Positions 1 through 19,619 of a stretch of 64,000 bases of DNA are shown here, piece after piece. The stretch spans positions 76,923 through 140,922 of the forward strand of contig LBYD01000001.1 in NCBI GenBank assembly GCA_000995965.1, read 5' to 3'. Source of the stretch: Candidatus Moranbacteria bacterium GW2011_GWC2_40_12 (GTDB taxonomy: Bacteria > Patescibacteriota > Minisyncoccia > Moranbacterales > UBA11712). The notes below the pieces were generated by a model. It made no database searches and had not been told where the DNA came from. It worked only from the letters and a program-made list of their open reading frames with translations. The first letter of the stretch is position 1, and each line of letters begins with the position of its first letter. The translations under genes and the position numbers were made by a program.

Positions 1-1347
1 TTTCCAAAAGTGAATTTTGATGCTTTTGTTCCGGTTGTCACTTTTGCCTGCGTGGCAACGCGCCATGATGTTTTTGATCGGTTCAAATTAAGCGAGAATT
101 TCCTCGAGGAATGCCAGGATACGGATTTTTGCCTGCGGCTTCAAGAATCCGGATTTAAAGTCCTTTATAATCCGGAATGTGAAATATATCATCTGGAAAG
201 CTCTTCGCGCGACTTCCGAAAAGGGGAGGCGGACAGACAGCTTTTGAAAAAAAGATGGGGAAAAAGAATTAATGAAATAATCACCGCCGGTAATCAAAGA
301 GTGAAATTCGAACCGGAAGAATACAAAAATTCCGTCACAATTGTCCGCGACGACGGAATTGGCGATCTTTTGATGGGAGTGAGCGCTTTCAAGAATTTTC
401 GCGAAACCCGCCTTCGCCAAGGCCCGCCTGCAACGATGTTGCAACTTCGGGCAGGCTTCGGCGGGCAAGAATATCCGGAAAGAAAATTGATCCTCGCAAC
501 CTATGAGCGCAACATCGAAATGATGGCGGGCTTTGGCATTTTTGACGAATTTATTCCGATTCCAAATGGGAAAAAATATTCCCCGCTTCCGATCCCGACA
601 GGAGAAGGAGGGAAAATATATAATTTCATTGACCTTGAAATGAGCTTCGGGCCGATTTGGGGCAATGTGAAAAATGACAACAAGATAAACCGCCATTTCG
701 TTTATTCACGAAGAATGGGGCTGGATGAGAATTTCAAGTTAGTCTCGATGCCGGATTATCCGGAGGCGAGAAAAAGAGTGGAGAAACTAATTACTAAAAT
801 AGGTGTTGATATATCCGCCAAAGGCGGATCCGCCTCTGGCGGAAATCAAAAGTTTGTCGTGTTCAATCTTGGTGCCTCCAACCCCGCCCGGAGCTGGTGG
901 GGGCCGTATTATCCGAAATTGATCGAAGCGGTTGAAAAAATGGGATTCACGCCGCTTATCCTGGGAACGAAAGACAGCGAATATTATAAAGGCGAAAAAG
1001 TAGTAAATCTGGTCGGGAAAACAAAAACAATCACGGAATTTATCGAAGCCCTGAAACTTGGAAAATACGTGATTTCCGCTGACACTAGCGCAACCCACAT
1101 CGCGGCTCTCGCCGGAATTCCGTTTCTGGCCATTTTCACCGGCGGAATGACACCGGAATCTCGTCTCAATCTTTACGAAAAATACGAAGTGCTGGCTCCG
1201 CCCAAGAGCCTCAAATGCTATCCCTGCTGGGATGAAGGCTGCAAAGATTTGTCGGTCCGATGGAAAAAAGACCCCTGCCGGCTTCTGATCAAACCGGAAG
1301 AAGTGATTGATAAATTCAAGAAGCTTGTCGAAAAATATCCAAGATAA
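1..1347 (+). CDS. Glycosyltransferase fusion, 5'-truncated by the window edge: C-terminal part of a GT2 domain fused to a GT9 (ADP-heptose heptosyltransferase-like) domain
   Basis: The frame is open from base 1, so the GTG at 10 is probably internal. GT2 tail: DTDFCLRLQESGFKV..YHLESSSR. GT9 motifs: IVRDDGIGDLLMGVSAF, NLGASNPARSW and ADTSATHIAALAGIPFLAIFTGG. Stop TAA at 1345-1347. Confidence 0.75.
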   Translation, partial: FPKVNFDAFVPVVTFACVATRHDVFDRFKLSENFLEECQDTDFCLRLQESGFKVLYNPECEIYHLESSSRDFRKGEADRQLLKKRWGKRINEIITAGNQRVKFEPEEYKNSVTIVRDDGIGDLLMGVSAFKNFRETRLRQGPPATMLQLRAGFGGQEYPERKLILATYERNIEMMAGFGIFDEFIPIPNGKKYSPLPIPTGEGGKIYNFIDLEMSFGPIWGNVKNDNKINRHFVYSRRMGLDENFKLVSMPDYPEARKRVEKLITKIGVDISAKGGSASGGNQKFVVFNLGASNPARSWWGPYYPKLIEAVEKMGFTPLILGTKDSEYYKGEKVVNLVGKTKTITEFIEALKLGKYVISADTSATHIAALAGIPFLAIFTGGMTPESRLNLYEKYEVLAPPKSLKCYPCWDEGCKDLSVRWKKDPCRLLIKPEEVIDKFKKLVEKYPR

Positions 1348-1369
1348 TATAAAAATTAAAAAAATAAAA

Positions 1370-2275
1370 ATGTGTAACAAAAAAAAGTTGCTTATTCTTT
1401 TGGTAGCGGCTTTTTCTTTCGTGCTTTTCTCAAATAAATCATTTGCCGTCACATTTGCCGTTATGGGCGATACACAAAGTTTCGAAGCTGGAAATGCGAA
1501 TGGTGCTCTGCAAAAGGCGGCAAAAAAGATAAAAAGAAAGAAAATCCGGGCGGCAATTGTAATGGGGGATTTGAAAAGTGACTGCTATAATGACACTACT
1601 TGCCTTTCATATTTCAACAACTGGAAAAGCGCGATATCTCCGATTTATAGAAAAACATATCCGGTGATGGGGAATCATGACAGGACGTATTCCGGGGCTG
1701 ACGCCATTTGGCAATCCGTTTTCAAGCTCCCGACCAATGGTCCAGAAAACTACTCCGAATTGTCATATGCTTTCAACAAGGGCAATTCTCATTTCGTTGT
1801 TCTGAACAGCTCCAAACCGGATAGCTATATCATTGATTCAAATCAGCGCAATTGGCTGGAGCAAGATCTTTCAAGAAATAGAAAAAAGAATATATTTGTT
1901 TTTTATCACATGCCGGCATTCCCGGTAAGTTCGCATATTGGGAGCGCGCTCGATCTATATCCAGAAGAACGAGATGCGCTGTGGAAAATTTTAGACCGAC
2001 ATAAGGTAACAGCTGTTTTTTCCGGACACGAACATCTTTTTGTTAGAAAAAAAATTGATTCGTCCGTTTTTTTGAGCGCGTCAAATTCAATTTATCAGTT
2101 CACGGTTGGGAACACAGACACATCAGCCTATCCTCCGCCACAAGAGGGCTCAAGTGAATACTATTATCTCGACAAACATTTCTTGATCGTAAAAGCGAAA
2201 AACAAAAAAATAACTACCGAACTATATTCAGCGGTTACTGGAAAAAAAATCAACACTTTTTCGTTCAAGAGATGA
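1370..2275 (+). CDS. Secreted calcineurin-like metallophosphoesterase
   Basis: Motif series GDTQ / MGDL / GNHD / VLNS / HMPAFP / GHEH. N-terminal signal-like MCNKKKLLILLVAAFSFVLFSNKSFA. ATG 1370 was chosen because the track start at 1307 overlaps the upstream gene. Confidence 0.8.
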   Translation: MCNKKKLLILLVAAFSFVLFSNKSFAVTFAVMGDTQSFEAGNANGALQKAAKKIKRKKIRAAIVMGDLKSDCYNDTTCLSYFNNWKSAISPIYRKTYPVMGNHDRTYSGADAIWQSVFKLPTNGPENYSELSYAFNKGNSHFVVLNSSKPDSYIIDSNQRNWLEQDLSRNRKKNIFVFYHMPAFPVSSHIGSALDLYPEERDALWKILDRHKVTAVFSGHEHLFVRKKIDSSVFLSASNSIYQFTVGNTDTSAYPPPQEGSSEYYYLDKHFLIVKAKNKKITTELYSAVTGKKINTFSFKR

Positions 2276-2761
2276 TTATTTCTCTGCTTTTATTTTTTCT
2301 TCGATAAGCGAAGTCGAAAGGGGAATATCTTCTTTGGGAACGAGGAAAAGCTCTCCGCCATACTGGTCGAGGACTTCCGTTTCGACGCATTTTGTTCCGT
2401 ATTCGGCGCTGTTGGCGTGGACATCCGGGCGGATTTTTTCGAGCCACGAGTTGGGGATGAGGTCGTCGAAAAGAAAAACATAGTCCACATACATTATCGC
2501 CGCTAGAAGCTCTGCCCGGTATTTGTCGGGAATGATGGGCCGTCCCGGCTTTTTTTTGTATTCTTTCACGGACTTGTCGCTGTTCACGCCGACAATCAGA
2601 AGATCTCCTCTTTCTTTCGCTTTTTTGAGAAGGTCGATATGTCCGGCGTGAAAAAGGTCAAAAGAGCCGTTGGTTGTGACAATTTTTTTGCCTTCCTTTT
2701 TCGCTTCAGCGGCGATTTGCAGAATTTCGTCAAGCGATTTTATTTTTTCTTTGTGATTCAT
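2276..2761 (-). CDS. hldC: D-beta-D-heptose 1-phosphate adenylyltransferase (RfaE domain II type cytidylyltransferase fold)
   Basis: TTNGSFDLFHAGHIDLLKKAKERGDLLIVGVNSDKSV matches the HldE C-terminal domain (TNGxFDxxHxGH, VNSD). It sits in an operon with gmhB, hldA and gmhA. Confidence 0.8.
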   Translation of the reverse strand: MNHKEKIKSLDEILQIAAEAKKEGKKIVTTNGSFDLFHAGHIDLLKKAKERGDLLIVGVNSDKSVKEYKKKPGRPIIPDKYRAELLAAIMYVDYVFLFDDLIPNSWLEKIRPDVHANSAEYGTKCVETEVLDQYGGELFLVPKEDIPLSTSLIEEKIKAEK

Positions 2762-2767
2762 ATGCTT

Positions 2768-2804
2768 TTACGAATTACGAATCAATTACGAATATACGAA
2801 TTAT
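2768..2804. repeat. Four copies of TACGAAT (2769, 2776, 2787, 2795), read as ATTCGTA on the minus strand just upstream of the hldC start
   Basis: Direct reading: ttacgaattacgaatcaattacgaatatacgaatta fills the gmhB-hldC spacer. Confidence 0.9.
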
Positions 2805-3352
2805 TATTTTTGCACAATAAATTTGGCCGCGTCGAGCAGGTCTTCGGCGATATATTCTACGTCCGTCTTGTGCTTTTCATCCGAGCCGCCCTTACCCGTT
2901 TTGACGAGGATTGATCTGATCCCGAAATTTTTTCCGCACTTCACGTCGGCCCATTTGTCTCCGATCATCCAGGAATTCGCATTGTCAATTTCAAAATCTT
3001 TTTCGGCCTGTTCAAGCATTCCAGGAGCAGGCTTTCGGCAATTTGAAGTTTTCTTGTATTTTCCAATTCCTTCGGGATGGTAGGGGGAAAAGTATGTTTT
3101 CAGAATTTCTATTCCGTTTTTTTTGAGTTCTTTTTCAACGTGGTTGTTGAAATTCCAAAAATCTTTCTCCGCATAATAGCCCCGGCCGATGCCTGACTGG
3201 TTGGTGATGATAATGAAATGAAATCCGTTTTGTTCAAGAATTTTCAGGCCGGGAATCACGTTTTTTTCAAATTCAAAATCTTCTATTTTATAAACATAAT
3301 TATGGTCGACATTGATCACCCCGTCGCGGTCGAGGAAAATTATTTTTTTCAT
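2804..3352 (-). CDS. gmhB: D-glycero-D-manno-heptose 1,7-bisphosphate phosphatase (HAD superfamily)
   Basis: MKKIIFLDRDGVIN (DxD motif), ITNQSGIGRGY, CRKPAPGM and GDKWADV align along the full length with the GmhB pattern. Confidence 0.85.
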   Translation of the reverse strand: MKKIIFLDRDGVINVDHNYVYKIEDFEFEKNVIPGLKILEQNGFHFIIITNQSGIGRGYYAEKDFWNFNNHVEKELKKNGIEILKTYFSPYHPEGIGKYKKTSNCRKPAPGMLEQAEKDFEIDNANSWMIGDKWADVKCGKNFGIRSILVKTGKGGSDEKHKTDVEYIAEDLLDAAKFIVQK

Positions 3353-3397
3353 AAGTTATCTGAAATTCAATGCCGGGGGAACCCCAACATTGAAAGT

Positions 3398-4435
3398 TTA
3401 CTCTCCGATCCAATCCAGAAGTTCTTCTTTCGTCACCACTGAAGTCCCGAATTTGCGGATGGCGACCTGCGAAGCGGCAGTGGCAAGCTCCAATGCTTCG
3501 TGCATTTTCGCGCCGCCGGCATAGGAAGCGATGAGCAATGCGGCGACTGTGTCTCCGGCTCCGGCGATGTCGAATTGCTCTTCGACTTCCCGGGGCCGGA
3601 CGAAATAGGGTTCTTTTCGGGGTTCGAAATAAACCGTTCCTTTTTTTCCTCGGGTGATGAAAATATGGATCGGAATTTCTTTCTGAATTATGCTCGCGAT
3701 CTCGATGATTTCGCTGTCCGTGGTTCCGTCTTTGTCAAAACCACTCATTATTTTGGCCGTTTCAACTGATTCCACCCGGTTGGGTTTCAGGAAGAACAGT
3801 TCGGGATTTTTGATGAAGCTTTTGAATTTCACGAAGGTGTTTTGTTTGAGATCGGCGAAAATTGGAATATTTTTTTCGCTTGAAATGTCAATAATTTTCT
3901 TGAAAACTTTTTCCGTGAGAAATCCCTTTGCGTAATCATGGACGGAAATAACAGCCGGGTTCATTTCTTTGGCAAGGCTTTCGAGATATGCCGATATCTC
4001 ATTTTCTTTTTCCTTGTTCAAGGGGCGGGTATCCTCCATATCTACCCGGGCAACATGCTGGGTAGTGGTTTTTATCGCCTTCACCCTCAATTTGAGGGTT
4101 GTTTTGCGGTCCGCATCAAGGCTGAAATGGGTGATTATTCCGCATTTTTTGTATTCTTCTTCCATCACTTCTGTATATCTTATTCTTCCTTTTTCACCAA
4201 TGACACCAACGAGGTGCGGCGTGAGGCCAATCGCTGCCATGCAATTCGCCGCGTTTCCGGCGCCCCCCGGAAAAAATTGCTCATCCTCCACCGCGATCAC
4301 GGGAACAGGAGCTTCCTGGGAAAATCTTTCGACGGGGCCGGTGAGATAAGCGTCAAGCATCACGTCGCCGCAGGCCAATACTGGCGCGTCTTTAGCATTT
4401 TTCAGGATTTTTTTGGCTCTTTCTATTGTTAGCAT
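3398..4435 (-). CDS. hldA: D-beta-D-heptose 7-phosphate kinase (PfkB family, RfaE domain I type)
   Basis: PfkB signatures GGAGNAANC and DIAGAGDTVAALL. Length 345 aa. Located between gmhA and gmhB. Confidence 0.8.
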   Translation of the reverse strand: MLTIERAKKILKNAKDAPVLACGDVMLDAYLTGPVERFSQEAPVPVIAVEDEQFFPGGAGNAANCMAAIGLTPHLVGVIGEKGRIRYTEVMEEEYKKCGIITHFSLDADRKTTLKLRVKAIKTTTQHVARVDMEDTRPLNKEKENEISAYLESLAKEMNPAVISVHDYAKGFLTEKVFKKIIDISSEKNIPIFADLKQNTFVKFKSFIKNPELFFLKPNRVESVETAKIMSGFDKDGTTDSEIIEIASIIQKEIPIHIFITRGKKGTVYFEPRKEPYFVRPREVEEQFDIAGAGDTVAALLIASYAGGAKMHEALELATAASQVAIRKFGTSVVTKEELLDWIGE

Positions 4436-4447
4436 AAAAATGGAACG

Positions 4448-4480
4448 AAAATTCTAAACCCCAAGCTCAAAATTCTAAAC
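4448..4480. repeat. Direct repeat AAAATTCTAAAC x2 (4448-4459 and 4469-4480), 21 nt apart, in the gmhA-hldA spacer
   Basis: Exact 12-mers were read directly. A looser third copy, GAAATTCAAAA, lies near 4502. Confidence 0.85.
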
Positions 4481-4549
4481 AATTTCAAAATTAAAACGGA
4501 CGAAATTCAAAAGAGTATTGAAAACTTAGATTCTGGCATTTGGAGTTAT

Positions 4550-5125
4550 TTAGGATTTACTGAAGAAATATTTCTCAACTTCTTCGCAGATCCAGTGGAT
4601 TGCCATCAAGTGGATTTCCTGAATAAGGGGTATATCCCTTGACGGAATAATAATCGCGGCATCAGCCAAATTTTTCATTTTCCCCCCGTCATTTCCAAGG
4701 AGGGCTATGTTCTTGACCCCTTTCTTTTTAGCAGATTCCATGGCTTTTAGGCAATTGCCTGAATTTCCGCTGGTGCTGATAGAAAACAGGACATCATTTT
4801 CCCCTCCCAAACTTTCGACGAAGCGGAAAAATATGCCCTCGTAGCCGTAATCATTTCCGACGGCGGTCGTCGTTGCCAGATCGTACAAAGATATCGCGGG
4901 CAAAGCCGGCCGGTCAAAAGCAAAGCGTCCGACAAATTCTCCGACCATATGCGAGGCTTGTGTTGCGCTTCCTCCGTTCCCGCAGGTCATCAACTTTCCT
5001 CTGTTTTCTAGCGATTTGACAATAGTATTGCGCGCAGATTCGAGAGAATCCAGAAAAACTTTGTCTTTTGCCAGCAAATTTTGCAATTCGGCCGATTGCT
5101 TGAGCTTATTTTGCATTGATTTCAT
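4550..5125 (-). CDS. gmhA: Phosphoheptose (sedoheptulose-7-phosphate) isomerase, SIS domain
   Basis: CGNGGSATQASHMVGEFVGRF, VGNDYGYEGIF, ISTSGNSGN and QEIHLMAIH are colinear with the GmhA family. Confidence 0.88.
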   Translation of the reverse strand: MKSMQNKLKQSAELQNLLAKDKVFLDSLESARNTIVKSLENRGKLMTCGNGGSATQASHMVGEFVGRFAFDRPALPAISLYDLATTTAVGNDYGYEGIFFRFVESLGGENDVLFSISTSGNSGNCLKAMESAKKKGVKNIALLGNDGGKMKNLADAAIIIPSRDIPLIQEIHLMAIHWICEEVEKYFFSKS

Positions 5126-5139
5126 ATTTACTGTATAAT
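5111..5139 (+). promoter_or_regulatory. Sigma-70-like promoter TTGCAT-17-TATAAT upstream of the repeat-protein gene
   Basis: TTGCAT at 5111-5116, 17-nt spacer, TATAAT at 5134-5139. It lies about 37 nt before ATG 5176. Confidence 0.4.
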
Positions 5140-5175
5140 TATATCAGCCAAACATAGCTTTATTAAAACAAAAAA

Positions 5176-5925
5176 ATGGACAAAAGACAAATCAGCAGCG
5201 TGATTATTGTCGCGCTGGCGATCACTTTCATCGGAGCTTCAGTCGCGAGCTCGAAAATCAAGACGCTGAAGAAAATAAAGGCGGGAAGCATCACGAATCC
5301 CTATATTGCCGACGGTGCGGTGAATTCCGCCAAAATCCAGGATGGGACAGTTTCGAACGCCGATTATTCCGACAATTCCGTCACAACCGGGAAAATAGCG
5401 GATGGAGAGGTCAGCACGGACGATCTCGCGAATAATGCGGTAACAACAGGAAAAATTTCGGATGGGACGATCGCGGCAGGGGATTTGGCTGATAGCTCGG
5501 TGACTTCGGCAAAAATTTCGGACGGAGCTATTGTCAACACGGATATAAATTCCTCGGCGGCCATCGCCGGAACGAAAATTTCGCCAAATTTTGGAAGCCA
5601 GGATGTGACAACAACGGAAGATGTTAACGCGACAAACGGTGCCGGTAATTTCTTAAGAGTAACAGTCGGAGATACCCTTGCTGGAACAGGTGGCGGACTG
5701 TATGTCGATGACGAGCTTACCGCTAACGGACTTCAAATAAATCCTTCTGATGCGTCAACAGGTGACGCAGATTCAGCAACTACGCCAACCGATGAAACAT
5801 GCAATAGTAATAATTGGGGAACTTATGAATTTGTGGATGACACGGACAGTCCCGCTGGATGGCTGTGGATTTGCCAGCGATCCGGTCCCGATACCTATGC
5901 ATGGGTGAGAGTAAGCGGCCCTTGA
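5176..5925 (+). CDS. Membrane-anchored or secreted Ser/Thr/Asp-rich periodic repeat protein
   Basis: N-terminal hydrophobic segment ISSVIIVALAITFIGASVAS. About 5 alternating repeats follow the pattern xxAVxxxKIxDGxVxxxDLxxx (for example NSVTTGKIADGEVSTDDLANNAVTTGKISDGTIAAGDLADSSVTSAKISDGAIVNTDI). The C-terminal domain contains 2 Cys. Confidence 0.7.
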   Translation: MDKRQISSVIIVALAITFIGASVASSKIKTLKKIKAGSITNPYIADGAVNSAKIQDGTVSNADYSDNSVTTGKIADGEVSTDDLANNAVTTGKISDGTIAAGDLADSSVTSAKISDGAIVNTDINSSAAIAGTKISPNFGSQDVTTTEDVNATNGAGNFLRVTVGDTLAGTGGGLYVDDELTANGLQINPSDASTGDADSATTPTDETCNSNNWGTYEFVDDTDSPAGWLWICQRSGPDTYAWVRVSGP

Positions 5926-5965: not shown

Positions 5966-6003
5966 AAAATAAAAAAGGCCCGATGCTTTATCGGGTCTTT
6001 TTT
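5966..6003. terminator. Bidirectional rho-independent terminator between converging genes
   Basis: Stem CCCGAT (5979-5984) / ATCGGG (5990-5995), loop GCTTT. An A-run lies upstream and a T-run downstream. Confidence 0.6.
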
Positions 6004-6005
6004 GA

Positions 6006-6938
6006 CTATTTGTTATTGTTTTTCTGAAACCACTCGTATGTTTTCCTAATTCCCGTTTTGAAGTCGGTTTTTGGCGTCCATCTAAAATTCTCTTTTATTT
6101 TCGCGTAGGAAAGGCAGCTGGTTTTTTGCTCGCCGATTTTGGCTGGTCCGTGAACTTCTTTGAATTTTTTTCCGAAATACTTGTTTATTTCTCGGAATAT
6201 GCCGTTTACACTCGTTTCTTTGCCGGTGCTGGCATTATATATTCCTACTTTGTCGAATTTTTCAAGCGCCTGCAGATTTGCCGAAGTTATATCGTCAATG
6301 AAAATGAAGTCCCTCGTTTGTTTTCCACTTCCGTTGATTACGGGTTGCTTTCCATTCATCATCATGTGGAGAAAAATCGCAATTACATTTACTTCTCCAT
6401 GGGGGTTTTGCCGCGGTCCATACACATTCGGATAGCGAAGAGCGGCAAATTTCAGCCCGTGGACCTTGTTGGCATAATGCAAGAATTTTTCAACGGAAAG
6501 CTTTCCAACTCCGTAGGGAGAGACGGGCCAAGGCTCGACGGTTTCCGGAGTGGGGAGGACGCGCGTGTCGCCGTAGAGGGCACCGCCGGTTGACGAAAAT
6601 ATGAATTTTTTGACTTTGTATCGGCAGGCGAGTTCAATAAGATTCATGCTTGCCAAAATATTATTATTCCCTTCGAAAAGGGGATCGGCGACGGATTTTC
6701 GAAGGTCTATTTGCGCCGCGAGATGGAAAATGACCTCCGGTTTTTCTTTTTTGACGGTAGCTTCAGTTTTTTTGTGATTGGTGAGGTCAGCTTTGAAAAA
6801 TTTTGCCTCGGGATTGATATTTTTCTCAAATCCGGTGGAAAGATTATCAATCACCAAAACCCGATGCTTCTTTTCAACAAGAGCATCGACCAGATGCGAA
6901 CCAATGAATCCCGCGCCTCCCGTGACCAAGATTTTCAT
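6006..6938 (-). CDS. NAD-dependent epimerase/dehydratase (extended SDR; GalE-like or HldD-like)
   Basis: MKILVTGGAGFIGSHLV Rossmann motif, DNLSTG, and the catalytic SPYGVGK (YxxxK). Length 310 aa. Substrate cannot be assigned by eye. Confidence 0.85.
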   Translation of the reverse strand: MKILVTGGAGFIGSHLVDALVEKKHRVLVIDNLSTGFEKNINPEAKFFKADLTNHKKTEATVKKEKPEVIFHLAAQIDLRKSVADPLFEGNNNILASMNLIELACRYKVKKFIFSSTGGALYGDTRVLPTPETVEPWPVSPYGVGKLSVEKFLHYANKVHGLKFAALRYPNVYGPRQNPHGEVNVIAIFLHMMMNGKQPVINGSGKQTRDFIFIDDITSANLQALEKFDKVGIYNASTGKETSVNGIFREINKYFGKKFKEVHGPAKIGEQKTSCLSYAKIKENFRWTPKTDFKTGIRKTYEWFQKNNNK

Positions 6939-6989: not shown

Positions 6990-8582
6990 TTATTTTATCT
7001 TCCAAATGATTGAAATGGTTTTCGACTCGATATTTTGCGCGAGACCCCATTTTTTTTCAGACGGTTCCAGAAAATTGTTATCTATTTCAATTACATCGAA
7101 AGTCCTGCTTTTGACCAGATCGGTATACCAAGTTTTTTCTTCAGCGACGGGTCCCAGGATAAAGATGTTCTCATAGCCATTCTGGTCGATGTATTTCAGG
7201 TCATCTGCGTTAAAAAAATAGACGGCTTTTTTGCCAAAAAGAGATGTCATGGGATCGCTAAGAAGCGAGAATCCGCTGCCAGTGGCCATTCGATCGACCA
7301 AAATCAGATCATTCGGGCCGAATTTTTCGGCTATTTTTTCAATTTGGGGCAAAAGATCTCTATTTTCCGAAAGAGTGAGAAAGCGCCAGCTCACGACGAC
7401 GTTTGCCGTGATAAGGGCCGCAAGGGTGATATAGAGAAATATTTTGTGATAGAAAAACCGGTTGAGAAAATATATCGAGTAAAAAATCAGGATTGGAAAA
7501 ACGGCAAAAACGAACCGGCGCAGCATCCACGGGTCATCAAGAGAAATCATCGGTGAAATAAGATAGAAAAAAGCCGGAAAAGTGAGGAGTATTGGAATAT
7601 ATTCCGGCTTTAGCCAGTTTTTTTTCACTTTTTTTGCGAGCCAGCCGATTCCAGCGAGACCAAGAATGAGATAAGCCAAAATGTTATAGCTCAAAAACAC
7701 AGTCGCGAGATGCGAATACAGGCCAGATGAGGGTGCGGAATCTTTGGTTGAGTCGGGCAGAAAAGCTTTTGTGAAATTTTTGGCGCTGTCAGTCAGATCA
7801 TGATAATTCAGAAAAATATAGAGGGCAGAGAGCAACAATGTGGAAATTAGCAGATATTTTATGAAATTTTTTGAAAGCGGGATTGTATTTTTTCTGTTAA
7901 GGAAATAAATATAGCCGGCGGCAAGGAGATAAAAAACTATTCCCTCGATTCTGGTGAGCGCCGAAAGAGCGAAAAAGAGCAAAGAAATTTGCAGAAAGCG
8001 GTTATCCATATTTTTAGACGTTGGACGTCTAAAAGAAAGCAGAAAATAAATTCCCGCCCAGACGAGAAAAAGCATGAAGATTTCCGTGAGCGCGTATTTG
8101 GCAAACCAAGGGAAAGGAAAAAAAGTCGCGGCGATGAGAAACCCGAGAAGGGAAACTTTCTCGGAAAAAAACTGGCGAAGTGCGAGCCAAAATAATACCA
8201 GAAACAAAGCCAGGTGGAGGAAGTTGGCATACTGGATTCCCTTCAATCCCAACGCGGCATAAAAAACGGCCAGATAGGCGATAAAAGCTTTTGGGAAGCG
8301 GGTTATCAGCTTTCCATCCTTGGTATAGTCAAAACCGGGGAAGTTGAGGGCTCTGCCTTGCCCGTATTTTTGAAATAAGTCGTTTGATGAGGGAGCGGAG
8401 AAAACAAATGATTTGTGTTTTACGAGATCGATCGCGGCGGTTGCGATGGCGCCCTGATCTCGCCCCCCGAAAACAGTTGGAGTCGCGAAATAGCAAGTCG
8501 TGAAAGAAATAGCAAGAGAAATTGCGATGACTACGAGAAAATAATTCCTGTTTCCCTTTTTTTTGGGAGATTGGTGTTCCAT
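6990..8582 (-). CDS. Polytopic membrane protein, GT-C-like (putative polyprenyl-phosphate-sugar dependent glycosyltransferase)
   Basis: More than 10 predicted hydrophobic helices, with a soluble C-terminal part. The start was moved to ATG 8582 (MEHQSPKKK), because the longer track ORF would run through a + strand promoter and has a non-protein-like N-terminus. Confidence 0.6.
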   Translation of the reverse strand: MEHQSPKKKGNRNYFLVVIAISLAISFTTCYFATPTVFGGRDQGAIATAAIDLVKHKSFVFSAPSSNDLFQKYGQGRALNFPGFDYTKDGKLITRFPKAFIAYLAVFYAALGLKGIQYANFLHLALFLVLFWLALRQFFSEKVSLLGFLIAATFFPFPWFAKYALTEIFMLFLVWAGIYFLLSFRRPTSKNMDNRFLQISLLFFALSALTRIEGIVFYLLAAGYIYFLNRKNTIPLSKNFIKYLLISTLLLSALYIFLNYHDLTDSAKNFTKAFLPDSTKDSAPSSGLYSHLATVFLSYNILAYLILGLAGIGWLAKKVKKNWLKPEYIPILLTFPAFFYLISPMISLDDPWMLRRFVFAVFPILIFYSIYFLNRFFYHKIFLYITLAALITANVVVSWRFLTLSENRDLLPQIEKIAEKFGPNDLILVDRMATGSGFSLLSDPMTSLFGKKAVYFFNADDLKYIDQNGYENIFILGPVAEEKTWYTDLVKSRTFDVIEIDNNFLEPSEKKWGLAQNIESKTISIIWKIK

Positions 8583-8593
8583 TGTATTTCTTA

Positions 8594-8622
8594 TTGACAA
8601 AAGTATAGTAATGTTATAGAAT
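8594..8622 (+). promoter_or_regulatory. Near-consensus sigma-70 promoter TTGACA-17-TAGAAT
   Basis: TTGACA at 8594-8599, 17-nt spacer, TAGAAT at 8617-8622. A GGGAGG Shine-Dalgarno sequence and ATG 8677 follow. Confidence 0.55.
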
Positions 8623-8676
8623 ATAGTTTCAAAATTAACAAAAAAACAATAAATGAAAAGGGAGGCAGGCCGGTCA

Positions 8677-9111
8677 ATGAAAATAAAATATTCAATGAAA
8701 AGTTTGAAAAAGTTTCTGGCCAACGCTTTTTCCGGGGGAAATCCGGAAAAAATCCTCGAGGATGTCCATTGCGAGCTCACCCGGAGAAATTTCGCGGTTG
8801 AGAGGTATGAGGACGTTTCCGGGATGGGGATTCGGGGCAGTTTGGACATCTACCCATCGGTTCAGGTCAATGTCTATATTCCCTTCACTTCCGCGTGGGA
8901 GCTGCAGGCGCTTCTCTTCTTCGAGGAGGATGACCAGCTCGAATTGGTGAGCCAGGTCCCCGATTTCAAGGAAAAAATCCTTTTGAGGCGCTATTCCCTG
9001 CCAATTAATCCCCGGGAAATCGCCAGAGCTTTGAGCACGGACGCCCTGCTTCTTGGCGCATTGCTGGCAACTATTCTCAAGCGCCAGGAAATTGAGGCAC
9101 GGCATGAATAG
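8677..9111 (+). CDS. Hypothetical cytoplasmic protein (144 aa), visibly G+C-richer than its neighbours
   Basis: Consensus promoter, a GGGAGG Shine-Dalgarno sequence 11 nt upstream of ATG 8677, and a globular-looking sequence (…IYPSVQVNVYIPFTSAWELQALLFFEEDDQLELV…). No family was recognised. Confidence 0.55.
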   Translation: MKIKYSMKSLKKFLANAFSGGNPEKILEDVHCELTRRNFAVERYEDVSGMGIRGSLDIYPSVQVNVYIPFTSAWELQALLFFEEDDQLELVSQVPDFKEKILLRRYSLPINPREIARALSTDALLLGALLATILKRQEIEARHE

Positions 9112-9202
9112 GGAGCGGGGCGGAGCGCCATTGGCGTCTTTGCCCCCCAATTTTCAATCAACATTTTTTGCTATAATCCTGACTTTACGTTAACATAAAT
9201 AC

Positions 9203-10150
9203 ATGAATGAATCCAGTCAGAAACCATATATATCCGTGATTGTTCCGCTTTATGACGAAGAGGGGAATGTGAGAGAATTGCACCAGAAAATAGTCGAAGC
9301 CTGCCGGGGACTTGGCAAGACTCTCGAAATTATTTTCATCGACGATGGAAGCACGGACAAGACGAATGAAATTTGCCGCGCATTGAGCCCCCTGAAGCTC
9401 ATCACCTTTCGAAAAAATTTCGGGCAGACAGCCGCCTTTGACGCGGGGATCAAAAATTCTTCGGGCGAAATCATTATCACAATGGACGGCGATCTTCAGA
9501 ATGATCCGGCGGACATCAAGCTGCTATTGGATAAATTAAGCGAAGGATACGACGTTGTTGCCGGCTGGCGGAAAAATAGGCAGGATTCCTTTATGAAGAA
9601 TCTTGCCTCGCGCGCGGCCAATATTGCCCGAAAATTTCTCATCAACGACGGAATTCATGACAGCGGGTGCAGTCTCAAGGCTTTCAAAAGGGAATGTTTT
9701 GACGATCTGGATTTGTATGGCGAGATGCACCGCTTTATCCCGGCACTCCTCAAGGTGCAGGGGTTCAAAGTGGCGGAAGTTCCAGTCAGCCATCATTCGC
9801 GCAAGAGCGGGGTGACGAAATACAACTGGAAGCGGGGAGTAAAGGGAATCGTTGATATGATCTCGGTCTGGTTCTGGAAAAAATACGCCAATCGGCCTTT
9901 GCATCTTTTTGGAGCGGGGGGTCTTGGGATATTTTTCCTGGGAATTTTGTCGGGAGCGGCGCTGGTCACGGCGCGCGTTTTCTATGCCGTCCCGATGTCG
10001 AACAAAATCTGGCCGCTCATCGCTGTTTTCCTGGTCCTGATGGGAATCCAACTCTTCATTTTCGGTCTTCTGGCTGATATCGCGGTCAAGAATTATTATA
10101 AAACGCAGGGGAAGATGAATTATAAAATAAGAGAGATTATCGAGAATTAA
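9203..10150 (+). CDS. GT2 polyprenyl-phosphate glycosyltransferase (GtrB/ArnC/CsbB-like) with two C-terminal TM helices
   Basis: ISVIVPLYDEEGNV, IFIDDGSTDKT, MDGDLQNDP (DxD) and GEMHRFIP, followed by two hydrophobic helices at the C-terminus. Confidence 0.8.
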   Translation: MNESSQKPYISVIVPLYDEEGNVRELHQKIVEACRGLGKTLEIIFIDDGSTDKTNEICRALSPLKLITFRKNFGQTAAFDAGIKNSSGEIIITMDGDLQNDPADIKLLLDKLSEGYDVVAGWRKNRQDSFMKNLASRAANIARKFLINDGIHDSGCSLKAFKRECFDDLDLYGEMHRFIPALLKVQGFKVAEVPVSHHSRKSGVTKYNWKRGVKGIVDMISVWFWKKYANRPLHLFGAGGLGIFFLGILSGAALVTARVFYAVPMSNKIWPLIAVFLVLMGIQLFIFGLLADIAVKNYYKTQGKMNYKIREIIEN

Positions 10151-11334
10151 TGAAAATTCTCACCATCGCCGCGACGCCTTTTTTTTCTGACCGGGGCGCT
10201 CATATGCGGATACTTAACGAAGCGAAATATCTCAAAAAATTGGGCGCCGAGGTGCGCCTTTGCGCTTATCATATTGGGGAAAATGTGCCGGGACTTGATA
10301 TCGAGCGTATCAAGGGCCCGAATAGCTACAAAAAAACATCTCCCGGTTTTTCCTGGGGAAAAATATGGCTGGACTGGAAACTCCTTTTTTTGGTTCGGCG
10401 GGAAATTAAAACATTTCAACCCGACGCGATCCACGCGCATCTTTGGGAGGGACTGGCTATCGGATATTTGGCGAAAAAATTGGCTTTTTGCGGAAAAATT
10501 CCGATAGTATTTGATTTGCAGGGGAATATCGATGAGGAATTTCAAAGTTACAGCCGAAAAAAATCAATCGCGCGGAAATTCTTTGTTTGGTTTTCAAAGA
10601 GAGTTATCAATTGGGCCGATAAAATTGTTGTCAGCAGTGAGAATGTCAAACTTCATCGTAGCGGTTTAATCGCTACGATCGTGCGGGATGGGATTGATTT
10701 GGATTTATTTCAAAATCTGCAAGACTTATCTAAAGTAGAATCGGATAAAATCGATAAAATTAAAAAGTGGGCTGGAGATAGTAAATTGCTGGTCTATATC
10801 GGAGGTTTGAGCGATAATAAGGGAGTCGGGGAGCTTTTGGAAGTTTTTGGAAAACTTGGCTTTGAGAAATTCCCCGACGAAAAGTCGGGGAAGGAAAAAG
10901 CCGAGCTTTGGGAAAAGAATAATTGGAAACTTCTATTGGGCGGATTTGGAAGTGACGAGGAAAAATACAAAAAATATATTACTGAAAAAAAACTGGAAAA
11001 ATCCGTGTATTTTGCCGGAAAAATTCCGTATTTTTCTTTGGCGCGCTATCTGGCATTGGCGGACGCTGGAATCGATCCCAAGAGCGGTTCGACCGAATCG
11101 AGCGGAAAGATAGCCAATCTTATGGCGGCGGGACTGCCAATAATTTGCTTCGGCACCAAATTTAATCGGGCGAGATTGGGCGAAAAGGGAATTTATTTGA
11201 AAAATATGAATGAATTGGCCGAAAAAATGAATACTTTTCAGGATACGGGAAAAATAGAATATGACATTGAAAATTTTAGCGAGGAAAAAGAAGCTCGGAA
11301 ATTGCTTGAAATTTTCCTATTACTTGTCAAATGA
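10150..11334 (+). CDS. GT4-type (GT-B) glycosyltransferase
   Basis: The N-terminus MKILTIAATPFFSDRGAHMR and the C-terminal nucleotide-sugar-binding half resemble group-1 GTs. The ATG overlaps the upstream TAA (TAATG). Confidence 0.72.
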   Translation: MKILTIAATPFFSDRGAHMRILNEAKYLKKLGAEVRLCAYHIGENVPGLDIERIKGPNSYKKTSPGFSWGKIWLDWKLLFLVRREIKTFQPDAIHAHLWEGLAIGYLAKKLAFCGKIPIVFDLQGNIDEEFQSYSRKKSIARKFFVWFSKRVINWADKIVVSSENVKLHRSGLIATIVRDGIDLDLFQNLQDLSKVESDKIDKIKKWAGDSKLLVYIGGLSDNKGVGELLEVFGKLGFEKFPDEKSGKEKAELWEKNNWKLLLGGFGSDEEKYKKYITEKKLEKSVYFAGKIPYFSLARYLALADAGIDPKSGSTESSGKIANLMAAGLPIICFGTKFNRARLGEKGIYLKNMNELAEKMNTFQDTGKIEYDIENFSEEKEARKLLEIFLLLVK

Positions 11335-12518
11335 AAACACTTCTCATAAAAACCGGAAAAGCGCTGAACGCCTTGAAGCAAGAAGGGCTGGTCCGCGGCG
11401 GAAAAAGGGTGGCAAAATCTTTTATAGCGCAATTTGGCCGGGTGCGGCCGGGGGATATTTTGTTTGTGACGCCGGGAGTGGGAGACAGCGCGATGTTTCG
11501 AGCGCATAACCAGGCTGAAGAGATGCGCCTTCATGAGTTCAAATGCAGTGTGACGATTCAGGATAATCCTTTTTTGCCGCGCTACGCGGATAAATTCAAA
11601 ATTTTCATTTTCCATCGGCCGGTTTGGACGAAAAATGTCGCAAAACTTTTTGAAAACGCCAAAAAACTTGGAAAGGAAATTATTTTCGAAACAGACGACC
11701 TGGTTTTCGACCCGAAACATGTTCAGGCGACGGAGCATTACAAAAAAATGAATATTTTTGAGCGTAAGCAATATGAAAAGGGAGCAGGAGAGGAGATCCT
11801 GAGGGATACGTATGTCAAGGCCTGCGCGACAACAACAAGCTTTCTCGCGAAAATTTTGGAAAAATACGGCAAAAAAGTCTTCATCTCGAAAAATAAGCTG
11901 TCGCTCAAAGATCTTGAAATCGCAGAAAATCTCTTGACGAAGGCTAAGCCTTCGTCAGATAATATTGGCTTGAGAATAGGATATTTTTCCGGAACCAAAG
12001 GGCATGATAAGAATTTTGCGACGATAGAAAATGCCCTGGTCAGGATTCTCGAAAAATACCCCGATATAAAATTATTTTTAGCCGGTCCGCTCAACATCAG
12101 TGAAAAATTCGGGAAGTTTCAAAGCCGGATCGAAAAATTTCCATTTGCGTTGCGCGAGGAGCACTTCAAAAATATCTCTGGAGTTGATATCAACATTATT
12201 CCTCTGGAAAAAAACAATGATTTTTGTGAGGCGAAATCGGAACTCAAATTTTTTGAAGCTGGGATTTTGGGAGTGCCCTCGGTGGCGGTAGACAATCAGA
12301 CTTATCGAGACGCGATTGATGATGGCGTTGACAGCTTTTTGGCCGGGAGTGAAAATGAGTGGGAAGAAAAAATTGAAAGGCTGATAGTTGACGGAGATCT
12401 TCGAAAAAATATGGGAAAAGAAGCGAGAGAAAAAACTATCCGCGAATATACGACAAAAAATAGCCACAGCAGCGAATATTATGATTATCTGCGGCTGAAA
12501 TTGAAAATGCAAAAGTAA
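11331..12518 (+). CDS. GT-B fold glycosyltransferase (group 1-like)
   Basis: IGYFSGTKGHDKNF…LFLAGPL…EAKSELKFFEAGILGVPSVAV. ATGA overlap with the upstream gene. Confidence 0.62.
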   Translation: MKTLLIKTGKALNALKQEGLVRGGKRVAKSFIAQFGRVRPGDILFVTPGVGDSAMFRAHNQAEEMRLHEFKCSVTIQDNPFLPRYADKFKIFIFHRPVWTKNVAKLFENAKKLGKEIIFETDDLVFDPKHVQATEHYKKMNIFERKQYEKGAGEEILRDTYVKACATTTSFLAKILEKYGKKVFISKNKLSLKDLEIAENLLTKAKPSSDNIGLRIGYFSGTKGHDKNFATIENALVRILEKYPDIKLFLAGPLNISEKFGKFQSRIEKFPFALREEHFKNISGVDINIIPLEKNNDFCEAKSELKFFEAGILGVPSVAVDNQTYRDAIDDGVDSFLAGSENEWEEKIERLIVDGDLRKNMGKEAREKTIREYTTKNSHSSEYYDYLRLKLKMQK

Positions 12519-12610: not shown

Positions 12611-13606
12611 ATGGAAAATACCGCCATTGTCATTGTCAACTGGAACGGAAAGAAGTATCTCAAGGACTGCTTCGATTCGCTCCAAAAACAAACCTATGAA
12701 AATTTCAGGGTTATTTTTGTGGACAACGGGTCAACAGACGATTCAGTCAATTTTGTAAAAAATAACTACTTGGAAACTAAGTTTCCAAGTGTAAAAATAG
12801 TTCGATTAGAAAGGAATACCGGTTTCTGTTTTGGATATAACGTGGGCATCAAGTCGGCGCTTGAAGATCCTAAGATAAAATACGTAATTGTTCTCAATAA
12901 TGACACCAGACTGGATGAAAAATACGTCGAAGAATTGGCAAGATGCGCGAAAAAATATCCGGGTACAGGTTCCGTCCAGCCGAAAGTTTTGAATTTTTTT
13001 GAAAGGGAAAAAATTGATTGCGCCGGAATTTATATCACTCGCGACGGGACGGCCCATAACAGGGGATACGGAAGAGATGCAAGAAGATATAGTGAAGAAA
13101 AAGAAATTTTCGGCGCGAACGGGACAGCCTCGCTTTTTACCCGGGAGGCGCTTGAGAAAACAGCCCTTCTGGAGCATAATTATTTCGACAATGACCATTT
13201 TGTTTTCTATGAAGACGTGGATCTGGCCTGGCGGATGAAAAACGCGGGATTTAAGTCGTATTTTTGCCCGCAGGCGGTCGTATATCACGTCCACAGCGGA
13301 ACTGCCGGAAAAGGTTCGCTGATGAAAGCATATTATCTCCACCGAAACTATTTCTTCACTGTCATAAAAAATTATCCTTTTGGAAAAATGGCAAAAACGT
13401 TTTTTTGGCGATTTTTCAGCTATCTGAAGCTGGTCGCGAATATATTCAATAAAAAGAAACGGGAGACGGAATTCGTAAAAGGGCGGAGCAAAGCTGAAGT
13501 CGCCCTTGTGATTCTCAAGGCATGGGGGAGCGTCTTATGCAATTTATCGAGAATGATGAGAAAAAGAATGTTTATCAGAAAAAAGATTCATGAAAATCAA
13601 ATTTGA
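12611..13606 (+). CDS. GT2 glycosyltransferase (rhamnosyltransferase-like)
   Basis: IVIVNWNGKKYLKDCFDSLQKQTY, VIFVDNGSTDDS, LNNDT and YEDVDLAWR. Confidence 0.8.
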   Translation: MENTAIVIVNWNGKKYLKDCFDSLQKQTYENFRVIFVDNGSTDDSVNFVKNNYLETKFPSVKIVRLERNTGFCFGYNVGIKSALEDPKIKYVIVLNNDTRLDEKYVEELARCAKKYPGTGSVQPKVLNFFEREKIDCAGIYITRDGTAHNRGYGRDARRYSEEKEIFGANGTASLFTREALEKTALLEHNYFDNDHFVFYEDVDLAWRMKNAGFKSYFCPQAVVYHVHSGTAGKGSLMKAYYLHRNYFFTVIKNYPFGKMAKTFFWRFFSYLKLVANIFNKKKRETEFVKGRSKAEVALVILKAWGSVLCNLSRMMRKRMFIRKKIHENQI

Positions 13607-18881: not shown

Positions 18882-19619
18882 ATGCAAAAAAGAATGAGCG
18901 CGACAGCAAAATTATTAGGCATGAAGATTAGCAATCTTTCAGCGGCTGAAATAAACGATTGGATAAAAATTATCCTGAGTAATCCGCCTGAACAGCGATT
19001 CGTGGTTTCGCTCAATCCGGAAATCATTCTGAAGGGGCATTGCGACGAAGGTTATAAAAAAATACTAAGCAGCGCCGATTTGGCGCTTTGCGACGGATTC
19101 GGAGTGAAGTGCGCGGCTTGGCTCAAGGGCGAAAAAATTAAAACAAGGTACACCGGAGTTGATCTGGTCGAACGCTCTCTGAAATTGGCAAAAGAAAACA
19201 ATATCAGCGCGCTGGTTGTTGTTTCGAAAAACAGTCTGAGCAGTCCCGAAGAGATAGAGAAGGGGATAAGAGACAAATATGATTTCGGGGCGCGGGCAAA
19301 ATATTGGGATGACGAAAGGTTTTTTGAATGCGAAGACGCGAAGAAAGCAGAAATAGTTTTTGTGAATTTTGGCGCTCCCCATCAGGAAAAATTCATTTTT
19401 GAAAATAAAAGGAATTTTCCGAAAGCAAAATTTTTGGCGGGAGTGGGAGGGACGTTTGATTTTCTCACAGGAAAAATCAGGCGGGCTCCACAGTGGATGA
19501 GAAAGGCGGGTCTGGAATGGTTTTGGCGAATGCTCCAGGAGCCCAAGAGACTAAAGCGCATTATAAATGCAGTCGTTGTGTTTCCTTGGGTTGTTCTAAT
19601 AAATAAAAAAAATAAATGA
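18882..19619 (+). CDS. WecB/TagA/CpsF family (GT26) glycosyltransferase
   Basis: FVNFGAPHQEKFI and GVGGTFDFLTGKIRRAPQWMRKAGLEWFWRMLQEPKRLKR are characteristic of GT26. Confidence 0.8.
   Translation: MQKRMSATAKLLGMKISNLSAAEINDWIKIILSNPPEQRFVVSLNPEIILKGHCDEGYKKILSSADLALCDGFGVKCAAWLKGEKIKTRYTGVDLVERSLKLAKENNISALVVVSKNSLSSPEEIEKGIRDKYDFGARAKYWDDERFFECEDAKKAEIVFVNFGAPHQEKFIFENKRNFPKAKFLAGVGGTFDFLTGKIRRAPQWMRKAGLEWFWRMLQEPKRLKRIINAVVVFPWVVLINKKNK

Follow-up and report, generated by a model that had tools for sequence, protein, structure and literature searches.

A phage tail-fibre-type shaft in a candidate surface fibre protein encoded beside the ADP-heptose operon of a Moranbacteria genome

Is a Ser/Thr-rich repeat protein encoded beside an ADP-heptose operon an acceptor of protein heptosylation, or does it have another role at the cell surface? 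The question was raised by one gene (5176..5925, the fibre gene below) in a stretch of 64,000 nucleotides from Candidatus Moranbacteria bacterium GW2011_GWC2_40_12, a member of the Candidate Phyla Radiation (CPR; contig LBYD01000001.1, positions 76,923 to 140,922 of the forward strand). This whole 64-kb stretch is called the window, and coordinates are counted from its first letter unless another locus is named. The original prediction, made from the letters alone, described the gene product as a candidate substrate of ADP-heptose-dependent glycosylation, of the type known for the autotransporter adhesins AIDA-I and TibA. Analysis of the protein, its family and its gene contexts argued, with somewhat more confidence than doubt, for an exported short surface fibre or adhesin of the Moranbacteria cell, probably trimeric and adhesive or structural in function; heptosylation of the protein was found to be unsupported.

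The fibre gene was complete, and its start codon was backed by 13 aligned homologs (alignment A1). The protein was a 100% match to the NCBI hypothetical protein A2374_01580 of Candidatus Moranbacteria bacterium RIFOXYB1_FULL_44_23, and no family could be assigned to it by Pfam and NCBIfam searches. The coding sequence could be divided into the following parts:

5176..5925, plus strand: complete fibre coding sequence with ATG start, 249 amino acids (aa)
5176..5247, plus strand: predicted N-terminal signal peptide or signal anchor of the Sec type (aa 1-24: MDKRQ, then 15-19 hydrophobic residues, then ASVA/SS)
5248..5304, plus strand: family-specific N-terminal module SSKIKTLKKIKAGSITNPY (aa 25-43), between the membrane segment and the shaft
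5305..5550, plus strand: shaft (aa 44-125) of about eight decapeptide units (four 20-mers), the pentads starting with I/V/L/Y
5551..5610, plus strand: shaft-end cap motif SSAAIAGTKISPNFGSQDVT (aa 126-145), from alignment A1
5611..5730, plus strand: variable Gly/Thr/Asp-rich connector (aa 146-185), from alignment A1
5731..5922, plus strand: C-terminal domain (aa 186-249) with two invariant Cys, C209 and C233 (A1)

The shaft matched the tail-fibre PHROGs 13518 (E-value 2.7e-19), 28766 (1e-16), 892 (4e-15) and another one (8e-12). A tblastn search of 50,697 phage GenBank records located the repeat in 145 of them. Gordonia and Mycobacterium phages contributed minor tail proteins and T7-like cyanophages tail fibres, and the annotations host specificity protein J and distal tail fibre also occurred. 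Given the PHROG matches and the 145 phage records, a fibre or adhesin role is reasonable, and the phage tail-fibre-like repeat style noticed in the original prediction was borne out. As in phage tail-fibre and minor tail shafts, the decapeptide (I/L)xDGxV(T/S)xxK alternates with (I/L)AxxxV(T/S)xx(D/K), and the terminal 'AAIAGTKISPNFG' cap is held in common, with profile E-values down to 1e-19; besides the three numbered PHROGs, examples are gp28 of cyanophage P-SCSP1u (PDB 8I4M), the 'tail fiber' of S-CBP3 and a minor tail protein of Gordonia phage Mariokart. The shafts of the A1 homologs terminate with AAIAGTKISPNFGSQ, and the cap residues A128, I130, G132, T133, K134 and P137 were invariant in this alignment. 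Near-identical cap motifs also terminate the repeats of unrelated fibre-like proteins, such as P0017 and P0021 (Ekhidna, annotated 'tail fiber domain-containing protein').

Among PDB sequences, the best matches were the P-SCSP1u fibre gp28 (8I4M, E 0.0016) and orf16 of Legionella phage LME-1 (9EG4 chain H), the latter being the top match of the window protein's own repeat region (E 0.037, 'IQDGAVTANKLATDSVTTVKILDDNVTSDKIA'). The gp28 protein is trimeric (PMC10575957), and the LME-1 paper reports a head decoration protein that is trimeric, projects outward and has unmodelled distal regions (PMC12407071). We infer that orf16, a name found nowhere in the text of that paper, is this decoration protein, and 9EG4 was assigned to the LME-1 capsid model by the order in which the paper lists its two models. 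The orf16 protein differs from the window protein in being a virion protein. In a metagenomic bacterium, two secreted proteins of 874-957 aa (locus L105, 5191..8064 and 9098..11722) carried the decapeptide repeat interleaved with 'LPPGGxAGGDLTGTYPNP' units; the repeat is thus not confined to phages and also occurs in large surface proteins of cells.

The periodicity of the repeat was evaluated by self-similarity of the protein against 500 shuffles, which revealed z values of 4.0, 7.2, 10.8 and 8.2 at lags 5, 10, 20 and 40, respectively, with lags 19 and 21 at chance (z of -1.0 for lag 19). Of the 19 consecutive pentads starting at aa 44, 17 have I, V, L or Y as their first residue. The peaks at lags 5, 10 and 20 indicate that the basic unit is a pentad, organised in 10-mers and exact 20-mers, and not a 20-21-mer. 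Thus, where about five repeats of 20-21 aa had been described, four clean 20-mers could be recovered in the same register (DGAVNSAKIQDGTVSNADYS, DNSVTTGKIADGEVSTDDLA, NNAVTTGKISDGTIAAGDLA and DSSVTSAKISDGAIVNTDIN), followed by the degenerate fifth that forms the cap, while the proposed 21-residue spacing did not hold. Tandem Repeats Finder detected no tandem repeat at the DNA level in the fibre gene, so the repeats appear to be old and diverged. Across the 13 homologs of A1, the copy number of the shaft varied in steps of about 10 aa. The described Ser/Thr richness was also confirmed, as Ser plus Thr made up 22.5% of the protein compared to 10.1 +/- 2.3% (maximum 15.5%) in 36 other window proteins.

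At the N-terminus, a hydrophobic segment spans aa 6-24 ('ISSVIIVALAITFIGASVA'), and S22, A24, S25 and S26 were invariant or nearly so in the 13 homologs. The N-terminal anchor of the original prediction stood as far as this segment is concerned, and a signal peptide and an anchor both fit it. A lipoprotein, a pilin and a sortase substrate were each rejected on reading the sequence, which contained no lipobox Cys, no prepilin G/FTLIE leader and no C-terminal LPXTG. The adjoining aa 25-43 form the best-conserved stretch of A1, with K29, T30, L31, G37, I39, N41 and Y43 invariant, and the N-terminal consensus of the alignment reads M-x-K-K-Q, a hydrophobic stretch and ASVASSKIKTLKKI(K/G)AGSITNPY.

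Full-length relatives of the fibre protein were represented by 13 clusters among 5.8 billion clustered proteins (38-76% identity, at least 90% coverage). The other approximately 230 matches aligned only to aa ~35-145, and some of these carried PF13884 (Peptidase_S74), PF07484 (Collar), PF03906 (Phage_T7_tail) or PF18454 (Mtd_N). A scan of the GTDB genomes returned repeat-sharing proteins only, with zero full-length family members. In a scan of 2.9 million IMG/VR viral contigs, 47 loci were obtained, all matching within aa ~1-197, and none of the 47 contained the C-terminal domain, although the C-terminal pattern was one of the two scanned. The full-length family together with its C-terminal domain was absent from these 2.9 million viral contigs and from the 50,697 phage records; the N-terminal module and the C-terminal domain were found in non-viral sequences only.

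The window protein differs from phage fibres at both ends of the shaft. It does not have a virion-attachment N-terminal domain (e.g. Phage_T7_tail), in place of which the predicted Sec signal or anchor stands, nor does it have a receptor-binding or chaperone C-terminus of the Peptidase_S74, Collar, Mtd_N or C1q type, and the C-terminal domain that it carries was not found in the viral collections searched. Its gene is also single and lies within a cellular glycan region, not in a phage structural module.

The C-terminal domain shows the motif T-x-P-x2-3-E-x-C-x5-G-x2-E-x-VDDT-x5-W-x-W-x-C-x3-G-x3-Y-x-W. An AlphaFold2 (AF2) model of the domain, based on a 20-sequence alignment, received a predicted local distance difference test score (pLDDT) of 89.4 and a predicted template modelling score (pTM) of 0.74. 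It predicts a three-stranded antiparallel sheet on which an extended, conserved S/T/A/D-rich segment is packed; no fold match could be obtained with this model, nor any resemblance to SLH, CWB or lectin folds. Of 1.84 billion representative proteins, 25 were matched by a profile of the last 64 residues, and about 16 of the 25 have the domain at their extreme C-terminus (three of these being members of the fibre family). Those of the 16 whose sequences were read showed an N-terminal signal sequence and other T/G/A-rich fibrous repeats, and Pfam recognised nothing in the proteins sharing the domain but one DUF5649. These secreted fibrous proteins (P0121-P0132, P0136 and P0137; 253-616 aa) have the signal sequence and the C-terminal ending '...TxPTxxTCxxxxxGxxxxVDDTDxxGAWLWxCExxGxxxYxW' in common with the window protein, whereas their shafts belong to other T/G/A-rich types and not to the phage decapeptide.

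The part following the shaft also varied among relatives. The connector contains an insertion of 14-30 aa in the relatives of 38-50% identity and was modelled by AF2 with pLDDT 35-45. P0016 and P0026 have the N-terminal module and the first repeats of the fibre protein in common, but carry different, shorter two-Cys heads, and P0016 (L087, 174..668) lies at the syntenic position beside the epimerase and glycosyltransferase (GT) cluster. Different heads on the same N-terminal module, one of them at the syntenic locus, suggest that the head is a replaceable part, and the arrangement at L087 looks like head swapping at a fixed locus. The terminal domains of fibrous proteins such as T4 fibritin, adenovirus fibre and collagen NC1 typically serve as a trimerisation nucleus, a binding knob or both. 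By analogy, the C-terminal domain of the window protein may be placed where fibrous proteins usually have their trimerisation or registration nucleus and distal binding knob.

In the arrangement that we propose, the Sec signal peptide or anchor and the family-specific segment, an N-terminal module specific to the CPR, would bring the protein out of the cytoplasm and possibly hold it at the membrane. The decapeptide shaft, homologous to phage tail fibre and minor tail repeats and ending in the 'AIAGTKISPNFGSQ' cap, would form a trimeric beta rod whose length could change through the gain or loss of 10-residue units. The compact two-Cys beta domain at the C-terminus, common to other secreted fibrous proteins, would be the terminal knob.

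Several observations weigh against the rod as drawn here. The shaft is probably a homotrimeric beta-structured rod, but no experimental fold was found for its repeat, so the trimeric reading is an analogy with phage fibres. The shaft regions of both solved phage proteins, gp28 and the LME-1 protein, are unresolved, and in gp28 the matched stretch belongs to the distal part of the fibre that could not be resolved. The AF2 monomer model of the full-length protein, which drew on a shallow 13-sequence alignment, had a mean pLDDT of 54.8 and was poor except for the last ~60 residues, with the shaft below 50. The best Foldseek match of this model in the PDB (E 0.5) is meaningless because of that low mean pLDDT. 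The period-5/20 pattern is also compatible with a monomeric pentapeptide-like beta-helix. Furthermore, four related genomes have the fibre gene at the border of a large glycan cluster, which leaves room for a glycan role, either as substrate or as glycan-binding anchor.

The signals surrounding the fibre gene were located as follows:

5110..5139, plus strand: promoter-like site of the fibre gene, sigma-70-like TTTGCA-18-TATAAT, by consensus match only
5166..5138, minus strand: promoter-like site of gmhA, by consensus match only
5970..6004, both directions: intrinsic-terminator-like hairpin separating the fibre gene from the convergent epimerase gene

The divergent spacer between gmhA and the fibre gene spans 5126..5175 and is exactly 50 bp long, as the original prediction had stated. 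The -10 boxes of the two promoter-like sites, on opposite strands, overlap within this spacer in the palindrome TATAATTATA (5134..5143). The gmhA -10 box is only about 12 nt from the gmhA ATG, and the gmhA mRNA may be nearly leaderless. An AT-rich leader similar to that of the window, 'ATTAAAACAAAAAAATGGACAA', was kept in L087 and L088. The promoter-like site and the terminator-like hairpin suggest that the fibre gene is a monocistronic unit.

The genes around the fibre gene are listed below:

2276..5125, minus strand: putative ADP-heptose operon, comprising gmhA (4550..5125), an hldA-like kinase gene (3398..4435), gmhB (2804..3352) and an hldC-like adenylyltransferase gene (2276..2761)
10..1347, plus strand: C-terminal 445 aa of a GT2-GT9 fusion glycosyltransferase (full length 661 aa, P0143)
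1216..1278, plus strand: 4-Cys motif CYPCWDEGC-x11-C within the GT9 domain
6006..6938, minus strand: NAD-dependent sugar epimerase gene, convergent to the fibre gene, best match GalE-like
6990..8849 (minus strand), 13590..15248 (plus strand) and 16044..18281 (plus strand): GT-C-like multi-pass membrane proteins, with weak matches to LA_3751/LA_3752 (7e-17), TMEM260-like (0.005) and PMT_2 (0.001)
18882..19619: TagA/WecG glycosyltransferase
32302..33360: LCP (LytR-CpsA-Psr) ligase
37702..39360: Wzy_C/O-antigen-ligase-like protein
48034..49530: Wzx/MurJ-like flippase

The best NCBIfam matches of the heptose genes were TIGR00441 for gmhA (5.8e-59; 198.6 bits against a curated cutoff of 209.45), rfaE_dom_I (6e-68), GmhB (5e-51) and rfaE_dom_II (5e-40); gmhB alone exceeded a curated cutoff, and this for the GmhB_yaeD subfamily model only, the other three genes staying below theirs. 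The ADP-heptose pathway has been reported earlier in Paceibacteria genomes of the CPR (PMC9166423). The operon is treated here as context of the fibre gene only. The window encodes at least 10 glycosyltransferases and the three GT-C-like proteins, which are possible extracytoplasmic glycosyltransferases, and a GT2 of the polyprenol-phosphate type (9203..10150) adjoins them in the same glycan region. Together with the TagA/WecG, LCP, Wzy_C and flippase genes, these would make up the full set of functions needed to produce a lipid-linked wall glycopolymer, and such a polymer would be another destination for heptose. No paralog of the fibre gene, M4 protease gene or small open reading frame (ORF) of the cassette type described below was found in the window. 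Elsewhere in the window, an 860-aa sigma-70 family protein (33509..36091, minus strand) was observed, in which regions 1.2 to 4 end at about residue 547 and are followed by an unannotated C-terminal extension of ~310 aa.

Conservation of this neighbourhood was evaluated in related genomes. L095 is a second assembly of the window population, with most genes 100% identical and gmhA upstream of the fibre gene. In L095 2699..5400, tblastn alignments were broken in hldC and hldA and gmhA was only 91% identical, a pattern suggesting that strain-level variation, or else differences in assembly, cluster in the heptose operon. In L088, which has a fibre of 72% identity followed by the epimerase (80%), the first gmhA codons were recognisable upstream, and gmhA probably precedes the fibre gene there. 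L003, from a sister genome of 75% protein identity (fibre 76% identical), was syntenic, with the GT9 (75%), hldC, the fibre gene, the epimerase (75%) and the 619-aa membrane protein (66%). Comparison of L003 1..2300 with 1..5125 of the window revealed that gmhA, hldA, gmhB and a metallophosphoesterase gene were missing, that hldC was split in two frames and that an extra cytidylyltransferase gene was present. Thus, the fibre gene was retained where the local heptose operon was degraded; the loss may be real, as a presence/absence polymorphism of the operon, or may come from misassembly of the Logan contig. L087 keeps the epimerase, GT-C-like, GT2, GT4, GT1 and GT2 genes, and its contig ends just upstream of the fibre gene. 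The epimerase was the fibre neighbour most consistently kept in close relatives (67-80% identity in L003, L087 and L088), and the genes of P0004 and P0005 have the same divergent and convergent geometry as in the window.

Among the relatives of 38-50% identity, no heptose genes were found in L001/L002, L004, L005, L089-L093, L096-L098 or the contig of P0007. P0007 is encoded between the PPDK gene and the desulfoferrodoxin and PMT_2 genes, the last lying two genes downstream. The distant relatives mostly occur in a co-directional cassette in which the gene of a secreted M4 metalloprotease is followed by a small Lys/Glu-rich ORF and the fibre gene. The cassette was located as follows:

L001, 5396..8690: M4 protease, small ORF and fibre genes, co-directional
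L005, 5389..8858: the same order, co-directional
L089, 405..3719: the same order, co-directional
L093, 46..3422: the same order, co-directional
L096 and L098: cassette genes, co-directional

The full cassette was present in L001, L005, the L089 group and L093, and at least the small ORF and the fibre gene in L004 and L097. The protease is thermolysin-like, ~745-770 aa long, with a signal peptide, FTP, PepSY and Peptidase_M4_C domains, HExxH and a C-terminal extension of ~200 aa, and the small secreted ORF encodes 78-95 aa. All three products are probably extracellular. The C-terminal domain of the fibre protein was looked for in the M4 proteases of the distant relatives and was not found. This cassette is a much more consistent neighbourhood of the fibre gene than the heptose genes. 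Moreover, none of 80 genome loci with the fibre repeat had gmhA, hldA, hldC or GT9 within 10 kb. The co-occurrence with gmhA, hldA and GT9 for which the original prediction proposed a survey was therefore confined to the window and L095, probably L088, and a remnant in L003. The pairing with gmhA looks like a local gene order inherited in a few close relatives, not a family-wide coupling.

A glycan link other than heptose is unlikely, but several features speak for it. In such a case, the protein would be glycosylated extracytoplasmically or bind wall glycan through the GT-C, polyprenol-phosphate GT2 and Wzy_C functions, or its C-terminal domain would anchor it to a wall glycopolymer. The gene order of fibre, epimerase, GT-C-like 619-aa protein, GT2, GT4, GT1 and GT2 was kept in L087 and partly in L003, and a PMT_2 gene also lies near the gene of P0007. 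The window encodes three GT-C-like proteins together with Wzy_C and LCP, and the C-terminal domain contains many aromatic residues (W, Y) and follows the conserved S/T/A/D-rich segment. However, the syntenic genomes are close relatives (55-83% protein identity), so the synteny of the glycan cluster is explained by shared descent, and the relatives of 38-50% identity are not near glycan genes. The S/T/A/D-rich segment was confidently modelled as part of the folded domain and not as a disordered linker, and the SLH, CWB or lectin similarity that an anchor of this kind might show was not seen.

It appears rather improbable that the repeats fold within a single chain into a right-handed quadrilateral beta-helix like that of pentapeptide-repeat proteins, each super-repeat making one coil of 20 residues, instead of building a trimeric fibre. 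The shaft does resemble pentapeptide-repeat proteins (Rfr fold) in having a hydrophobic residue at every fifth position (17 of the 19 pentads have a hydrophobic centre) and a 20-residue super-period, which is its strongest period. The same repeat in P0014 weakly matched designed pentapeptide solenoids (5dra at 6.9e-4, 4yei and 4yc5) and Np275/276. However, the window repeat region reached 5dra only at E 4.4, and no Pfam Pentapeptide match was obtained at E <= 10. The position i-2 of the fibre protein is mostly Gly/Asn/Asp/Ser and not Ala, and there is no A(D/N)LXX pattern. AF2 usually builds solenoids readily for repeats of the pentapeptide type. It built none in the 13-sequence monomer model, where the shaft had a pLDDT below 50. 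Homologous repeats occur in known trimeric fibre proteins. A trimeric surface fibre remains the reading that we prefer.

The heptosylation idea itself holds that the fibre protein is modified in the cytoplasm on the Ser/Thr of its repeats, by the GT2-GT9 enzyme with ADP-heptose from the operon, in the manner of AAH and TibC, and is then exported. In its favour are the position of gmhA 50 bp away, the overlap of the two divergent promoter-like sites, the presence within 5 kb of a GT9 domain and of genes for the whole ADP-heptose pathway, the probable adjacency to gmhA in L088 and the high Ser/Thr content. CPR cells presumably have no lipopolysaccharide, and heptose would accordingly need some other acceptor. 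We nevertheless consider this idea quite improbable. The linkage was absent from all contexts of the 38-50% relatives, partly lost in L003, which keeps the fibre gene, and not seen at any of the 80 repeat loci. Ser plus Thr reached 15-24% in the same repeat of unrelated proteins, so the Ser/Thr richness is a property of the repeat and not a mark of glycosylation. In Moranbacteria and other Patescibacteria, the GT2-GT9 family numbers at least 100 clusters (90% identity) compared to the 13 fibre clusters, and its normal acceptor therefore cannot be the fibre family alone. The wall-glycopolymer toolkit, with its TagA/WecG, LCP, Wzy_C and flippase genes, fits as the place where heptose would be used.

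The relationship of the enzyme to TibC was evaluated with profiles, since a phmmer search of the PDB with the single GT9 sequence found nothing and profiles only gave matches. The GT9-domain profile reached E. coli WaaF (1PSW, 3.7e-5) first and TibC (4RB4, 4.5e-3) second. In the alignment with TibC, 'CYPCWDEG' is paired with 'CYGCWDD', the segment of the TibC iron finger that holds Cys339 and Cys342; AAH and TibC form the BAHT family (PMC4358343). The Cys spacing is C-x2-C-x4-C-x11-C in the window enzyme and C-x2-C-x15-C-x11-C in TibC. An ordinary GT9 of ~330 aa at the Lewinellaceae locus L019 also has a 4-Cys tail, LPCRPCSKIGFSECPKGHFQC, so the motif is not specific to protein heptosyltransferases, and a 4-Cys metal finger may be common among GT9 enzymes at large, beyond the heptosyltransferases of autotransporters. 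A search of plasmids with the GT9 domain revealed a Serratia GT9 without the Cys motif. BAHT enzymes have an N-terminal beta-barrel, a GT-B core, a beta-hairpin thumb and the 4-Cys iron finger, whereas the window enzyme carries a GT2 domain at its N-terminus and no barrel. It is closer to WaaF, ends 3.8 kb away beyond the operon and is neither adjacent to nor co-oriented with the fibre gene.

The fibre protein resembles AIDA-I and TibA in having Ser/Thr-rich repeats of ~20 residues in an exported protein, with ADP-heptose pathway genes and a GT9-related enzyme nearby. There are several differences. No C-terminal beta-barrel translocator was found (no Pfam match at E <= 10; the protein has 249 aa and a three-stranded end of 64 aa). 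The period is 5/10/20 and not that of the AIDA-type 19-mer, with no Pfam match of the AIDA or pertactin type, and the host is a CPR bacterium, presumably without an outer membrane. Linkage between the substrate and heptose genes was also not conserved. The autotransporter reading was rejected on the missing barrel, 19-mer and conserved linkage, and the AIDA-I/TibA-style substrate proposed in the original prediction was not supported.

A leftover phage tail-fibre gene in a prophage remnant without a cellular role, suggested by the shaft homology and by an integrase or resolvase gene within 5-8 kb of the homolog in L004 and L005, is hardly credible and was rejected, since the 64-kb window contained no phage genes near the fibre gene or elsewhere, its G+C content was no different from the flanks, a signal peptide stands in place of a virion-attachment domain, the viral collections were without the full-length family and its C-terminal domain, and the family is conserved at about 38-77% identity with intact frames and invariant N- and C-terminal motifs.

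CPR bacteria (Patescibacteria) are thought to live attached to other cells, and few of their surface structures are known. Heptosylation of the fibre, if true, would represent a protein-heptosylation system outside Proteobacteria and outside autotransporters. It is very improbable, however, that a CPR cell heptosylates a domesticated surface protein of the phage-fibre type through ADP-heptose and a TibC-like GT2-GT9 enzyme, with the fibre mediating episymbiotic attachment. A useful negative result is that the adjacency to gmhA is not a conserved association and gives no evidence for a new glycosylation system; for the heptose acceptor, the fibre protein is no better a candidate than the wall-glycopolymer genes (TagA/WecG, LCP, Wzy_C and flippase). 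New is a small, uncharacterised family in which a cellular protein with a predicted signal peptide reuses the shaft of phage tail fibres, together with an unannotated two-Cys terminal domain worth a family model. The head differences between relatives at the same locus (P0016 in L087) are expected of a surface protein that mediates contact or is targeted by phages. The fibre family is thus a concrete candidate for cryo-electron tomography, proteomics and binding studies.

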